From positions 416,001-480,000 of the forward strand of contig OZ271918.1 of the NCBI GenBank assembly GCA_965602015.1: DNA of 64,000 bases. Reading direction: 5' to 3'. Origin of the DNA: Salinispira sp. (lineage in GTDB: Bacteria; Spirochaetota; Spirochaetia; DSM-27196; Salinispiraceae). Shown one piece after another: positions 36,001-42,000 of the stretch. Position numbers: made by a program. Positions within the stretch are counted from its first letter, which is position 1, and each line of letters starts with the position of its first letter.

Positions 36001-39000
36001 CGCATTATCCAGGGGATGAAAAAAGCCGGTGAAATGAATCCGGTCTTCGTCCTGGACGAGGTGGACAAAATATCGGCGTCCTATGCCGGTGACCCGGCGA
36101 GCGCCCTTCTGGAGGTGCTGGATCCCGAGCAAAACGGAACCTTCGCCGATCACTACCTTGAGGTACCCTACGACCTGTCCGATGTGCTCTTTATCGCCAC
36201 TGCGAACTCGCTTCAGGGCATCCCCGGGCCGCTCATCGACCGGGCCGAGGTGATCAATGTCTCGGGCTACACCAACCCGGAGAAAACCCGCATCGGCATG
36301 AAGCACCTGTTTCCCAAGGTGCTCGAAGAGCACGGTCTGGATGAATCCCGGCTGCAAATTGATGAAGACGCCATGCGGTTGGTGATCGAGCGGTACACCA
36401 GGGAAGCCGGCGTCCGGGGACTTACCCGGCTGTTGGCAAAGCTGGTCAGAGTCAGTTCGACGGAGATCGTCGCAAACCAGTCTTCCGAGCCCACCGTCAT
36501 CAACTCAGACCGCATCGAAGATTTGCTCGGACGGCCGAAGGTGCGGCTTGACGACATTCAAAAGGAGAGCGTGCCCGGGGTGGTGACCGGACTGGCCTGG
36601 ACGCCGGTGGGCGGTGACATTCTGTTCATCGAAGGTTCCCTCATGCCCGGCAAAGGCGGTCTGACCCTCACCGGGCAGTTGGGCGATGTGATGAAGGAGT
36701 CGGCTACCATCAGCATGAGCCTGGTGCGCTCCCGGCTTGCCGGATCGATAAGTCACTTCGACTACTCGCGGTCGGATATCCATATTCACGTCCCCGCGGG
36801 CTCGACCCCCAAGGACGGCCCCTCAGCGGGGGTGACCATGTTCACCGCCCTGGCAAGTCTGCTCTTGGGCAGGCCGGTTGACCGAAGCACCGCGATGACC
36901 GGCGAAATCACCCTTCGGGGATCGGTGTTGCCCGTCGGGGGCATCAAGGAAAAGGTCATAGCCGCCCATCGCGCGGGGGTTACGAAGGTGCTCCTGCCAC
37001 AGGAGAACAGAAAAGATCTGGAGGATGTGCCCGAAGAGGTCCGCGCCGATCTGAAATTCATCTTCGTCGAGACCGTTGAAGAAATCCTCAAGGAAACACT
37101 GGACGTCGACTTGCCGGCCAAGGAATGGATCGCCCTTTCCCTGGAAGGCGCCGGCGCCGTTGCCCGAAATTAATCCGTCGAATATACGCAGGGGAGGGAC
37201 CGCTATTTAGGGGTTCCTTCCCTCGCTTTTCGCGAACCCGACAATTTTTTCCCATTGCCCGTCGCTTAGCTCGTCGTAAATATTTCCATGTTCCGTGGTG
37301 TTCAGTTTTATCAGATTGCCATCGGTAAAAATTCCCGAAAGTCTTTCTCCCAGCTCAAACGGCACCACCTGGTCCCCGTCGCCGTGTATAATCAGGGCGG
37401 GATGGATAAGATTCTCTGCTTTTGCATCGTTGTCGTATCGGTCGGTCAGCAAAATCCTCACCACCCAGCGGGGCATGGAACGGGCGCCGATATCTTCAAT
37501 GCTGGTAAAGGGGGTAAAAAGAATGAGACTGCGGCCATAGCCACGGGAGGCCATTTCGATTGCCGGACCGCTACCAAGAGAATGGCCGCTGAGAATGATC
37601 TGCCCGGACGTAAATCCCCGTTCCTCTATTATATATGACAGTAGTGCGTCGGCATCCCGGTATATGCCCTTTTCGGAAAGGCGGGAATCGGCGCTTATAC
37701 CGTAACCGGGATACTCCACCAGCAGGACAGAAAAACCCGCTTCCTGCCAGCGTCGCCCCGGGCCTTCCTGATTGTAGAATGTCCCTCCGTTGCCGTGGAA
37801 CAGCACCACCAGATCTTCACCGCCCGGCGCGAATAAACCGCGGGAGGTATTCCCGCCTGACGTTATTTCGATGAGTTCGCCGCCCTCAATATGGGGGATT
37901 CTCTGATCACTTCCCGGGTAGTACAGCATGGATCTGGTTATGCCGGCGCAGGAGCTAAGGGAAATCAATAGAACCAGGAAAACGCCGGCAAATATACGGG
38001 TATTCTTCACTTGTCCTCCCCCATAACTTTTTCTATCATGTGACCTGTGGAACTACAAGCACTATTACGATTACAGAGCTGCAGTATACTCTCGAGCGAC
38101 ACCATGGCCGGGGCGGTGGCTGAAACGCTATCTTACGTCTACCCCCGCGAGGCGGAAGGCCGACGACAACGGGTCGTCGAACTGATTCTGGCCAGGGAAG
38201 CCGATGCATCGACGGTAATCGCCCCGGGCATCGCAATTCCCCATGCGATTCTCGATGAGGATGCAAAGACCGAATTGGCCGTGGCCGTATCCAAACCGGG
38301 GATCGATTGGCATTCATCGGGGGACGGCGAAAAGGTTCACGTGATGGTTCTGCTCATCGGAAGCCGGGCCGCCCATCTCGAGGCGCTTGCAATGGTAGTA
38401 TCCCTCCTCCGCAATCGCAAAAACTACGAACGGCTCCTCACCGCCGAATCACCGGCGGACATCCATGCTGTTTTTATACCCCCGGCTGTTGCGGACCCCG
38501 CGGCATACAGCGAGCGCATTATTGCCCACGCATGCAGAATCCGCGACGATTTTCCTCATTCAGTGACGGTTATACACAGCGACACCTTTACCGACCTGTC
38601 CGCGCTCAAGAGCATACCCGACGATCGGGACATTATTCTCACGGCAACCAGCGAGGAAGTGCTGGATAGCATTCCCTTCCACGGGAATATGGAAAAAGTG
38701 CTTGTTCCGGTCCCGGTGTATTACAACGAGAAACATGTAAAGTTCGCGTTGGTGTACCTGCATTCCCACGGGTTCCTTGACGGATATGAACGGGTGGTAT
38801 GCATCAGCGGCGGGCAGGATATGAACCGCATCGATTCAATTCGCATTTTCGATGTCGAGGGGGATATCGGCATTCATGCGGGCCTGCGGGATTTGGAACT
38901 GCCGTCGGATATTCAGCGCCCGGTATTTGCCAAAGTGCTGCAGCTTGCCGAGAGCCTGGCCTTGGAAGGCCGGGAAGGTAAGCCCGTCGGCGCAATTTTT

Positions 39001-42000
39001 GTGGTGGGCGATCACCAGCAGGTCGCCGGGAAATCCCGCCAACTGATAATAAATCCCTTCAAAGGCTATCTACCCCAGCAGCGAAGCATACTCGACCCGG
39101 TACTCGATGAAACCATCAAGGAGTTCGCCAAAATCGACGGCGCGTTTCTCATAACCGGTGATGGGGTCATCGAATCCGCGGGAACCTTCATTGCCGGCCA
39201 GCCTGAAAGCGCTTCCCACCGGCCGGGCCTGGGGTCCCGCCATGCCGCCGCCCTGGGAATTACCGCCGTCACTTCAGCGGTGGCCGTGGTGATTTCCGAA
39301 TCCACCCGCAAGATCAGCGTCTTTCAGGGCGGAAAGCACTTCGAGCTGGACTAAACTTCGAATGGTACTCGGTTTATAGGGTTGATAGAAGTTTTTTTTG
39401 CCCTGCCGGCATTGAATCTCGACAATACTTCCGGCCATGTGATATGTTTGTATGATACCAATTTTTCGGGCTAATAGAGAAAATAAACAAAGGCCGAAAA
39501 GTGTTGAATGCAAGAAAGCCGTACCAAAACCGGAGGTAATCGTGTCAATTAAATCCAAATCTTTGCTGCTCATCGCTCTGATTCCAATTCTTGTTTTTTC
39601 CTCGTGCGACATTTTATTCGAGACTTTTTACACCGTTACGTATTTTGAGAACGGCGCCGACTCAGGGATTGTCCCTTTTAGCCAAACCGAAACAGTGGGC
39701 GATGCTATTTTCCTGGCCTATAACTTCGGCGAACTTGCCCGGACCGGCTACAGTTTCGTCGGCTGGAATACCTCCCCTGACGGCTCAGGGCTGTCCTATG
39801 ATGAAGGAGAAGAGTACATCGGATTTGAGGACGTGAACCTCTACGCTCAGTGGTCCGCCGAGAGCTATTTGATTCGCTATTTAGCCAATGGCGCCGATTC
39901 CGGGCAGGTTCCTTCTTCCCAATCCAAGGATTACGGTGTCGATGTTACCCTCAGATTCAATGAGAACGGCCTTGCTCGTACGGGATATACCTTCATCGGC
40001 TGGAATACCCAGGCCAACGGAGGCGGAACGGCTTATGCCGAGGGCGCGACGTATTCCGTTGACGCAGATTCGGATTTTTATGCCCATTGGACTGATCTGC
40101 CTACCTATGTGATCAGCTATGACGGAAATGGCAATACCGGCGGAACCGCCCCCCCTGAACAGATAAAGCTGCAGCACGAGGGAATAGCGATCGGCAACAG
40201 CGGAAATCTCGAGAAAACCGGTCACAGCTTCCTTTATTGGAACACCGCAGCCGACGGCAGCGGAATCACCTATGAAACAGGTTCAATCTATAGCGTAAAT
40301 TCCGACCTTATTCTGTATGCAATCTGGGCGGTCAATCAATATAGTCTTGTGTACGAAAATAGCGGCAGTACTACAGGGACAGCTCCTGAGACCCTTTTGC
40401 ATGATTTCGGCAGTCTTGTTGCGGTTGCTGATCAGGGAACCCTCCAACGCGACGGCTATGACTTTATTGCCTGGAATACCAATATAGGAGGATCCGGCCT
40501 TGAGTATCTTCCCGGCGATACCATTACCATTCCTGCAGCGGATGTCACCCTCTACCCACAGTGGGAAAAATCGCCGGTCACGTTGACCCTGGGGCAGTGG
40601 CATCAAGCTAATCCGGAAAACGTTGTATCCGAATGGTTCAGGTTTGATTCCGAACCGGGCAAAATCTACCAAATCCATACCCATGATGCTTATTTTACCC
40701 ACCCCGATGCTCCGGGAGCGGCAAGCTATGACAACGAATTGGGAGCCTACCGAAAGGATAAAACGACCTCTTATAATTATCTAATCCCCGGCGGCCAAAC
40801 GGGGCAGCAAGATATCTACGGTTCCCTAGAGTACCTGGAGCTTGAGGCCCTGGAAGACCAGGTTTATATTCAGGCGACTCAATACGGGGGAGGCAGCGCT
40901 TCGGGAAGCCACTGGATTAAGGTGCTGCCCATACTGGATTCCTATAATATTGCCGTCACCGTTGAGGGTAACGGCTATGTGGAGCGCCGGGTCGGGGGCA
41001 TTTTAAACGACGGACCCTATCCTGAAGGCACGGAGGTTGAACTCACGGCAATCGCACGGGACAGCGACGCGTTCCTGTCCTGGGCCGGAGCCCTCAGCGG
41101 CAGCGCGAATCCTCAGACACTTACAGTCACTTCCTTTACCGAAGTCACTGCACAGTTCACCGGCACTCCGGTCCAGCCCGCCATTGTGCCGGTAATTTTC
41201 AACCCGGTGGACACAAGCGCAATGGTGGATTTGTTTGATCTCAGCGGAAAATCCGTATACCTGGTCAAGGCGAATCACTCGATTGACGCAGCGTCAGAGG
41301 CCGCGGGAGTGCAGATGAATATCCGCCCCAGCGATTTGACGCATCAGCGAGGAATAGTCCGGGAGCCGACGTTTGCTCAACGGCTGGCTCAACTGGGAAT
41401 AACGGAAGATGAAGTATCCGGAGGAAATCTGAGATACGTTGATCAGACGGGTCGCTTTATCCTGGACCGCAGTGATGTTTTGGATCTCGACCTGCCCGGC
41501 GGCAGTGCATCAGCCGGCAATTTTGCCGCTCCGAGCCGTTCCCTCCGGGGGCTCGAAAAGCTCGAGTTCGTGGCGGGAGACAGTAAAACGTTCTGGGTTG
41601 ATGACGGACCCAACGGTCAGCCCGGGGTTTGGGAACAGATTACCGCAACCCTCAGGGCCGTCGGCGACAACTCCTATATATGGGTTCATGACGCCACGTA
41701 CGACGCCCTTTCATCGAGCGGCACGGATAACAAGATTACCCAGGCCCAGGCCGAGCTTCTCAGAGATAACTTTGAAATTCTGTATCCCATGGCGACAAGT
41801 CTGTTCGGATACGAGCTCGGGGGTGGACCCGGAGGAGACGGGGGAATGGATTCGGACTCAAGAATCAGCATTCTTCTGTATGATGTGGCCGACGATTACG
41901 CAGCCGATCAGACCGGGGGAATTTTGGGATATTTCTGGGGAAAGGATGCCTATACTCAGGCGTTCTTTGATGGGAATAACATCGACCTTAAATCAAACGA

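Follow-up and report, generated by a model that had tools for sequence, protein, structure and literature searches.

A predicted DacZ-branch diadenylate cyclase with a fused EIIA domain in Salinispira, a candidate for tuning by the regulatory PTS

Introduction

Can c-di-AMP synthesis be placed under the control of the regulatory PTS by a phospho-acceptor domain fused to the cyclase itself? The question is raised by a gene of Salinispira sp. within the window analysed here (64,000 nucleotides of contig OZ271918.1, positions 416,001 to 480,000), for which an earlier note had proposed that c-di-AMP synthesis is switched by phosphotransfer from the PTS. The regulation of DacZ-branch diadenylate cyclases is given as unknown in PMC10249747, and a soluble protein that carries a switch of well-understood chemistry would make this regulation open to study in vitro. 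If PTS control is true, several under-studied phyla would have a direct link from the carbon and nitrogen sensing of the PTS to c-di-AMP. The Salinispira gene is one unremarkable member of a large family already catalogued in databases, and the value of this work lies in the correlation with enzyme I, not in the locus.

Gene and domain architecture

The protein is encoded by a single open reading frame on the forward strand, ending with the stop at 39354 (Table 1). We place its start at GTG 38047, because a relative of 66% identity can be aligned from residue 1 and the start column holds Met in 104 of the 120 aligned rows of homologs. This rules out the ATG at 38104, from which a protein of 416 aa had previously been read; the acceptor His of the A-I-P-H motif is present as claimed, and its number changes from H47 to H66. 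PtsN structures, which pair with the predicted protein from residue 5 onward, agree with the GTG start. The sigma-70-like site upstream might put transcription initiation on the GTG or immediately ahead of it and so give a leaderless message; the site is weak, two such sites having been found where 1.5 were expected by chance. Recent horizontal arrival was rejected, as the GC content of the gene (57%) is no anomaly against that of the genome (54%). A search of the genome for the c-di-AMP riboswitch RF00379 found none.

Table 1 Features of the fusion gene and its surroundings, in window positions
Feature	Position	Strand	Basis or remark
Alpha/beta hydrolase, divergent neighbour	37207..38010	-	Pfam
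Sigma-70-like site TTGTCC-17-TATCAT	38011..38039	+	9/12 matches; occupies most of the 36-bp divergent gap
EIIA - DacZ_P (PK_C-like) - DAC gene	38047..39354	+	435 aa, GTG start
PTS EIIA type-2 (Ntr/fructose/mannitol) domain, residues about 3-145	38053..38481	+	Pfam PF00359 and structure match
Arg50	38194..38196	+	Equivalent of IIA-Ntr Arg57 (alignment to 1a6j)
His66 (A-I-P-H), predicted phospho-acceptor	38242..38244	+	Equivalent of IIA-Ntr His73 (alignment to 1a6j)
His110, second His	38374..38376	+	Equivalent of IIA-Ntr His120 (alignment to 1a6j)
DacZ_P, pyruvate-kinase C-terminal (PK_C) fold, residues about 148-282	38488..38892	+	PF21755 and structure matches
DAC domain	38902..39351	+	PF02457

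The fusion of PTS_EIIA_2 with DAC is confirmed by Pfam matches within one reading frame. Two domains had been described; a third, DacZ_P, lies between them. The full protein gave an AlphaFold model with a mean pLDDT of 90.3 and a pTM of 0.74. Prediction of a homodimer scored 0.01 against a mark of 0.42, which we do not take as evidence either way.

The first domain matches PTS_EIIA_2 over residues 41-143 (E 2.8e-20) and superimposes on E. coli IIA-Ntr (1a6j) with Z 19.4 and rmsd 2.3 over 143 aligned residues, so that it has both the fold of a type-2 EIIA and the Arg, His and His of its active site; Arg50 is the residue that we take to be the active-site Arg. R50, E51, P65 and H66 are each kept in all 119 near homologs (31-66% identity) and H110 in 106 of them, this position being mostly Tyr in Opitutales. 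R50 and H66 are together intact at 30 of 31 loci of the same order, the remaining locus being without EIIA. With these residues in place, the predicted phospho-acceptor site R50/H66/H110 of the Salinispira protein is intact.

The DacZ_P match of the middle domain is weak (residues 158-270, 22.2 bits, below the cut-off of 27.4). A count by eye gave about 49 homologs, out of 120, with PF21755 assigned, and the model exceeds its cut-off at the related loci L072, L109 and L110. A structure search with the full AlphaFold model, the single-sequence fold (pLDDT 43) having been discarded, matched the domain to pyruvate kinase 2e28 (Z 10.4, rmsd 3.4, 120 aligned) and to AF0103 1vp8 (Z 8.1).

The DAC domain was recognised over residues 305-430 with E 2.3e-22 (79.3 bits against a cut-off of 27), and its fold gave Z 13-17 to chains of CdaS, CdaM, DisA and CdaA. 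It carries EGREG (307-311), NPF (336-338), DGA (364-366), R-H-A (398-400) and SES (417-419); all the motifs listed previously (A-I-P-H, EGREGK, NPF, IDGAF, GLG-RH-AA) are indeed present and conserved. D364-G365-A366 and S417 pair with CdaA; all 119 near homologs keep D, G and S, and 118 keep A. Relative to CdaA, RHR has become RHA and SEE has become SES, so the full RHR motif of CdaA/DisA-type domains is absent; R-H-x is the norm across the DacZ-type branch, near homologs included. A dead cyclase is unlikely on this ground, as an annotated haloarchaeal DacZ shows R-H-x too (GLGTRHHAA, SES). Because of its fold and motifs, we consider it highly probable that the domain condenses two ATP to c-di-AMP.

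Relation to known cyclases and distribution

The architecture had been presented as an undescribed class, which does not hold: there are already a Pfam model of the middle domain, database names and large clusters, including ESM Atlas clusters of PTS_EIIA_2 - DacZ_P - DAC architecture (score 0.95). The class DacD is said to have been defined by Corrigan and Gruendling in 2013 as PTS_EIIA_2 plus DAC. In Opitutales, DAC was found in 59 of 61 genomes, with exactly one in 57, and the EIIA fusion was seen in 58 of the 61 DAC-bearing genomes (the 59 together with G058 and G059); it is thus the usual, and mostly the sole, cyclase of Opitutales. Because these taxa are listed as DacD, the fusion very probably is the published DacD class, an identity drawn from taxa and not from the domain definition. 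The DacD representatives in the part of Braun 2019 consulted, which follows the nomenclature of Corrigan and Gruendling 2013, are proteins of Lacunisphaera, Puniceicoccaceae, Coraliomargarita, Verrucomicrobia and Opitutae (PMC6741144), and our match to the five accessions listed there was made at the level of taxa. The Salinispira copy differs from the Opitutales proteins in belonging to a spirochaete branch, in keeping the second His and in having CdaA alongside. In the literature searched we found no description and no characterised member of the EIIA-DAC fusion, no enzymology or phosphorylation data on such proteins and no link of this kind between PEP or nitrogen status and c-di-AMP; the reviews likeliest to include the fusion lay outside that search, and the blank is not evidence of novelty.

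According to the part of PMC6741144 consulted, a PK_C-fold domain ahead of DAC is a feature of the DacZ/CdaZ branch, and the Salinispira protein has this fold at residues 148-280. Archaeal DacZ/CdaZ (DacY; Haloferax volcanii, Methanocaldococcus jannaschii) likewise combines a PK_C-like domain with DAC, whereas the Salinispira protein has an additional N-terminal EIIA and no mscS neighbour. G-x-E/Q-G-x-x-G, NPF, KEF-x-x-x-DGA, GLG-x-RH-x-AA and SES are shared with haloarchaeal DacZ, and the identity to annotated DacZ of Haladaptatus (34% over 181 aa) agrees with the 33-37% reported before. The haloarchaeal DacZ equivalog NF041371 has a cut-off of 430 bits, well above the 119.8 bits that the protein reaches, which therefore falls outside it. 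Bacterial DacZ_P-DAC proteins without EIIA (Planctomycetota, Syntrophales and other deltaproteobacteria; about 290-330 aa) are 34-40% identical to it over residues about 150-430. CdaA/DacA and DisA have in common with it the DAC fold with DGA and RH, and sequence alignment to CdaA/DisA is limited to the last 70 or so residues; unlike them, the Salinispira protein lacks transmembrane helices and an HhH domain, and its third RHR residue is Ala.

Its EIIA domain has the fold and active-site residues of PtsN (EIIA-Ntr), a terminal acceptor whose phosphorylation state is used as a signal, the outputs being K+ and second messengers (TrkA, YcgO, KdpD, SpoT/Rel); control of TrkA, YcgO, KdpD and SpoT by phosphorylation state is described in the part of PMC13104625 consulted. 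PtsN is a free protein acting in trans, whereas the Salinispira EIIA is fused in cis, and the latter reaches 42.3 bits on the PtsN equivalog TIGR01419 (cut-off 138.7) and does not stand alone in an rpoN cluster.

About 42 of 57 genomes of the spirochaete order carry the fusion, and all 56 other genomes of the order have enzyme I. One complete genome of the same genus is without the fusion gene and keeps only a CdaA-sized cyclase.

Phosphodonors and the correlation with enzyme I

The genome encodes four enzyme-I-family genes above cut-off (enzyme I and PtsP-like proteins), three HPr and HPrK, with an rpoN-hprK-HPr cluster from which the fusion gene lies far away. Enzyme I lies at C1:1960876-1962573, a PtsP with a GAF domain at C1:1626478-1628064 and one of the HPr genes at C1:3665503. 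Our search of the genome bore out the six other EIIA_2 contexts reported earlier, together with CdaA-CdaR, which makes the fusion protein a second cyclase; no fructose or mannitol PTS permease was found among the neighbours scanned at the seven EIIA_2 loci. Of the control genomes, E. coli K-12 returned no DAC hit.

Among 50 Opitutales genomes with enzyme I, 45 retain both R50 and H66; among eight lacking enzyme I only one does, and in a ninth such genome the EIIA domain itself is gone. DGA, RH and EGREG are kept in all eight, and 5.5 of eight intact sites would be expected from the background decay of other EIIA columns. R50 is the least kept of 25 conserved EIIA columns in these genomes (2/8), while His is kept in five and a recognisable EIIA domain in seven of the eight. 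The p-values (Fisher 2e-5; background 6e-4) are both overstated because the eight genomes form about four lineages, of which the starred branches of a quick tree force only two. All eight genomes are moreover reduced (0.8-1.1 Mb) and on long branches, so that genome reduction confounds the correlation; G094, a reduced genome with enzyme I, has also lost R50. In the other domains of the enzyme-I-less proteins, four columns decay further (1/8) and one DAC column equally (2/8), although overall the DAC columns are conserved better than the rest of the fusion protein. Confounded as it is by genome reduction, the decay of the EIIA site where enzyme I is lost is new support for PTS control.

Proposed mechanism and alternatives

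On balance we favour the reading that the protein is soluble, belongs to the DacZ branch of diadenylate cyclases and has its output adjusted by the regulatory PTS. Phosphate would pass from PEP through enzyme I/PtsP and HPr to His66, and the N-terminal EIIA would be the terminal acceptor, with no sugar permease to receive the phosphate. The phosphorylation state of EIIA may then alter cyclase activity, while the PK_C-like domain may be an ancestral regulatory module common to archaeal DacZ, of which the H. volcanii enzyme is active in vitro according to the part of PMC6741144 consulted. The unphosphorylated form is presumably active, because lineages unable to phosphorylate the site keep an intact, often sole, cyclase; phosphorylation would be a modulator, most likely a brake. 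Carbon and nitrogen status would thereby be linked to c-di-AMP, and hence probably to K+ and osmotic control.

Alternatively, the cyclase may be active while EIIA needs no phosphorylation and serves in docking, in oligomerisation or in sensing a ligand or ion, like the same fold in the SLC4 cytoplasmic domain; HPr or another partner may bind without phosphotransfer mattering. The domain outlives enzyme I in seven of eight genomes, as noted, and its fold also matches Band-3/SLC4 regulatory domains (Z 10-13.5). Genomes with an intact relay hold variants of the acceptor: H66 is kept at 47 of 51 EIIA-bearing loci and is Gln at four (Fibrobacterota, mostly Chitinispirillaceae), among them G060 with enzyme I and HPr, and it is Tyr or Asn in four Opitutales genomes with enzyme I. 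We nevertheless think this explanation unlikely, given that R50 and H66 are invariant in the near homologs and that R50 is the EIIA column to decay most in the genomes without enzyme I.

The strong form of the earlier idea, an obligatory on-switch in which His66 phosphorylation is required for activity, would suit the almost total conservation of the EIIA site in spirochaetes, yet it is quite improbable: a sole cyclase whose catalytic motifs are intact is still found in genomes without enzyme I (7 of 10 also without HPr) and in His-less lineages, and EIIA-less relatives with intact cyclase motifs are common. What stands of the earlier proposal as a whole is the DacZ-type cyclase, the intact acceptor and the encoded donors, to which the site decay without enzyme I adds suggestive support. 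A DAC domain with no activity or with a different product, in a nucleotide-sensing PTS regulator whose signal runs from DAC to EIIA, is very improbable, since the RHA and SES departures from CdaA recur in an annotated haloarchaeal DacZ, most Opitutales sampled have no DAC other than the fusion, and DAC columns are the best kept, even if CdaA is available for synthesis in this genome.

Tuning by the PTS may have a wider form, for and against which we see the case as evenly poised: HPr-dependent EIIA phosphorylation would set cyclase activity in cis in most Opitutales, which have no other cyclase, and in the majority of genomes of this spirochaete order, and would here form one arm of a circuit whose phosphorelay also acts on Na+/H+ antiporters and Mrp via EIIA and EIIA/PII-like modules.

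Gene neighbourhoods

The PTS had also been called a hub of ion homeostasis in this genome. From gene context this is a fair reading for five of the other EIIA loci, the remaining one of the six being an amino-acid permease; nothing links the cyclase gene to any of them. We saw no sign that the divergent alpha/beta hydrolase belongs to the system, and conserved neighbours are absent across related loci. Among 62 neighbour proteins scanned from 80 related loci there were no PTS core genes, nor was any neighbourhood conservation tied to PTS or ion transport found across these loci. Generic ABC ATPases, Clp and sigma-70 make up the largest clusters of neighbours. Two further EIIA proteins lie near the fusion at one Pontiellaceae locus (L057) and one at L076.

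Architecture of a putative PTS-tuned diadenylate cyclase

The gene product is rather likely to be an active DacZ-branch cyclase that is tuned by phosphorylation of H66 via PEP, enzyme I or PtsP, and HPr. The gene lies in the single long plus-strand reading frame ending at 39354 in the window, which is open from a GTG at 38047. The earlier note had begun the protein at the ATG at 38104 (416 aa), which leaves out 19 residues; we used the GTG (435 aa), and the predicted phospho-acceptor His is therefore numbered H66. Residue 1 is where the alignment with a 66%-identical relative starts, Met stands in the start column in 104 of 120 aligned rows, and PtsN structures align to the EIIA part from residue 5. 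A weak sigma-70-like site, of a kind found at chance frequency here, ends 7 bases 5' of the GTG, and its position would fit a leaderless message.

Pfam placed PTS_EIIA_2 at residues 41-143 and DAC at 305-430, with DacZ_P (158-270) only below the cut-off. An AlphaFold model built from 111 sequences was confident throughout (pLDDT 90.3). Its N-terminal part matched IIA-Ntr 1a6j (Z 19.4, rmsd 2.3, 143 aligned), residues 148-271 the pyruvate-kinase C-terminal domain 2e28 (Z 10.4), and the C-terminal part DAC chains (Z 13-17). Judged by this model, the protein is made of three modules. The EIIA-DAC fusion described in the earlier note is real and right in outline, but the middle, pyruvate-kinase C-terminal-like module was missed. 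In the E. coli IIA-Ntr chain, the aligned counterparts of R50, H66 and H110 are R57, H73 and H120; H73 is the phospho-site there, assisted by R57.

Coordinates of the genes discussed (window positions unless a locus or contig is named; L, fetched locus; G000:C1, contig of the window's genome)
Feature	Position	Strand	Remarks
EIIA-DacZ_P-DAC gene	38047-39354	+	435 aa
MarR-type regulator, then Lon protease	34292-37173	+	end head-to-head with an alpha/beta hydrolase gene
Predicted lipoprotein	39452-42763	+	1103 aa; Listeria-Bacteroides repeats; C-terminal H-E-Y-Q-H stretch, no Pfam match there
Class III adenylate/guanylate cyclase	44531-45814	-	5 kb from the DAC gene
EIIA-PII-like fusion	L022:7546-8367 (G000:C1:3227545-3228366)		274 aa; follows a Na+/H+ exchanger gene
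EIIA with PII-like gene in Mrp cluster	L018:8063-8868		separate 115-aa PII-like gene directly upstream of EIIA
DHH protein	G000:C1:3234116-3234541	-	320 aa; close to a RadA-like gene and some 6 kb from the antiporter locus with the EIIA-PII-like fusion
Same-family relative (genome G054)	L126:654-2696		681-aa frame
Same-family relative (genome G056)	L127:1689-3530		614-aa frame

The H-E-Y-Q-H stretch of the predicted lipoprotein suggests a metallopeptidase. We saw no evidence linking the class III cyclase to the DAC gene.

Family, distribution and known classes

The protein search gave 773 matches among 7999 scored candidates. Each of the 120 matches listed carries both PF00359 and PF02457, and the two functions are already combined in several of their JGI names. 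R50, E51, P65, H66, D364, G365, R398, H399, S417 and S419 are invariant across all 119 near homologs. A genome scan found at least 540 stretches with relatives, of which 80 were kept and 79 aligned (L087, with EIIA and DAC in different frames, was left out). EIIA is present in 51 of the 79 (Spirochaetota, Verrucomicrobiota, Kiritimatiellae, Fibrobacterota, Hydrogenedentes and others), four of which have Gln in place of the His; the other loci are chiefly 290-330-aa forms lacking EIIA (Planctomycetota, deltaproteobacteria) or are truncated by a contig end. Within the window's order, 47 of 57 genomes match, about 42 by eye with the whole fusion in one frame; a complete genome of the same genus (G055) is without the fusion gene and has one CdaA-sized cyclase only. 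No conserved neighbours were found among 62 neighbour proteins scanned, a subset of all.

Several variants were seen. Gln or Tyr replaces the His in four Fibrobacterota loci (L072, L084, L092, L095) and three Opitutales genomes (G064, G098, G120), and those of the genomes that were checked (G060, G064, G098, G120) have both enzyme I and HPr. In Fibrobacterota, an acyltransferase gene lies immediately upstream of the cyclase in six loci and is fused to it in protein P0167. In the relatives from G054 and G056, the domains are separated or interrupted by long low-complexity inserts; G053 has an EIIA-less form, and the full gene is present twice in both G033 and G039. Rare DacZ_P-DAC fusions, one representative each, include a DHH domain (P0247, 680 aa), possibly joining synthase and hydrolase, or an FAD oxidoreductase (P0237, 702 aa). 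In L057 (Pontiellaceae), the genes on either side of the EIIA-DAC gene also encode EIIA fusions, one with a zinc ribbon and the other with an amino-acid permease, so that 5.5 kb hold three of them.

The 2013 review of Corrigan and Gruendling reportedly shows DacD with a PTS_EIIA_2 domain, and DacZ_P is said to originate from Galperin 2023. The latter, as cited in PMC12901056 and PMC10249747, distinguishes 22 DAC families by N-terminal domain. Braun 2019 (PMC6741144) treats DacZ, DacY/CdaZ and their bacterial homologs as a single family with a PK_C domain, and lists under class DacD proteins of Opitutae, Puniceicoccaceae, Coraliomargarita and Lacunisphaera. In the taxa so classed, the fusion is the DAC usually present and mostly the only one; DacD is therefore very probably the EIIA-DacZ_P-DAC architecture. 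ESM Atlas clusters with this architecture have 139, 147 and 61 members. Our literature search found no paper on, or experiment with, an EIIA-DAC fusion, and nothing bearing on it was seen in passages of PMC12974146, PMC10086821 and bioRxiv 2025.06.19.660554 (the last searched with terms other than EIIA); PMC13640721 matched none of the terms used. The gene is a member of a catalogued kind, itself apparently uncharacterised by experiment.

PTS and c-di-AMP genes of the genome

The genome encodes two DACs, the fusion and a CdaA followed by a YbbR protein. Four enzyme-I-family genes score above the cut-off: the first stands alone, the second belongs to a glucitol PTS cluster that has its own HPr, the third includes a GAF domain and the fourth is of PtsP length. 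The genome also has three HPr genes and an rpoN-hprK-HPr cluster. The six other EIIA_2 contexts in the earlier note were confirmed. Three are fusions, two with Na+/H+ exchangers and one with an amino-acid permease; of the other three, one lies next to a Na+/H+ exchanger and two lie next to Mrp genes. P-H is kept in all six. These domains look regulatory, since no fructose/mannitol permease occurs among their scanned neighbours. An ion-homeostasis hub, as proposed there, is a reasonable reading of these loci by gene context, but they have no link to the cyclase gene. TrkA_C and DHH domains (six matches each) mark possible c-di-AMP receptors and phosphodiesterases, and the genome contains no c-di-AMP riboswitch.

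At two antiporter loci, EIIA is paired with a PII-like module (38% identity between the two), whose nearest solved chains, by weak matches, are GlnB/GlnK. Receptors of c-di-AMP with a PII fold exist, and this candidate module could be a meeting point of both signals. The 320-aa DHH protein has the size of stand-alone DhhP phosphodiesterases.

Phosphorylation site and enzyme I

Phosphate would pass from PEP through enzyme I or PtsP and HPr to H66; the unphosphorylated cyclase would be active, and phosphorylation would modulate it, likelier as a brake than as a trigger, the sign being inferred. For PTS gating of c-di-AMP synthesis as such, we see roughly even chances. Control of this type has a precedent in trans: the phosphorylation state of PtsN governs TrkA, YcgO, KdpD and SpoT, the GAF domain of PtsP senses glutamine and 2-oxoglutarate, and Spirochaetales have PTS-Ntr genes (PMC13104625; PMC10118264).

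We sampled 61 genomes of Opitutales, of which 59 have a DAC and 57 exactly one. G058 and G059 brought the DAC-bearing genomes examined to 61. The EIIA fusion is seen in 58 of them; of the other three, one has a decayed N-terminus, one is without the domain and one is truncated at a contig end. Among 64 genomes searched, enzyme I was not found in 10 and HPr in 9; in five of the 10, a second model gave only sub-cut-off matches in frames of 900+ aa, which we read from their length as pyruvate phosphate dikinase. G060 (other phylum), the additional DACs in G074 and G109, G120 (frame beginning within EIIA), G076 (contig end) and G091 (domain absent) were left out before counting. Of the 50 genomes with enzyme I, 45 retain both R50 and H66, versus one of the eight without it, against 5.5 of eight expected from other conserved EIIA columns, although all eight are reduced genomes on long branches, representing about four lineages with only two forced on a quick tree. 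R50 is the worst-kept of 25 conserved EIIA columns in these eight, while DGA, RH and EGREG are intact in all.

Several observations count against a link between enzyme I and site decay: H66 is kept in five of the eight, Arg is lost in G094 although enzyme I is present, His is replaced by Tyr, Asn or Gln also in genomes possessing the relay, and four columns elsewhere in the protein decay further than R50 and one equally far. The His replacements would suit an EIIA that acts as a docking or sensing module independent of phosphorylation, which we consider unlikely but the most serious rival; the invariance of R50 and H66 in the 119 near homologs and the decay of R50 where enzyme I is missing speak against it. 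The window's order offers no contrast (enzyme I in 56 of 56 genomes); R50 and H66 persist there in 30 of 31 loci fetched from 46 other matching genomes. Such retention could also be expected if H66 phosphorylation were an obligatory on-switch, but this is improbable: sole cyclases survive in lineages in which the site cannot receive phosphate, and the unphosphorylated protein should therefore be active. Least probable of all is an inactive DAC serving as a sensor, for which DGA, R-H-A and SES in place of the DGA, RHR and SEE of CdaA might speak; an annotated haloarchaeal DacZ (34% identity over 181 residues) departs similarly, with RHH and SES, and H. volcanii DacZ produced c-di-AMP in vitro, with manganese only (PMC6741144), so the variant motif is no sign of a dead enzyme.

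Nine Opitutales genomes of 0.8-1.1 Mb without enzyme I (G063, G066, G077, G091, G097, G099, G105, G116 and G119; loci L131-L150 and L207) have a single cyclase, a DAC whose motifs are intact; most of them show decay of the EIIA active site, and G091 has lost the domain.
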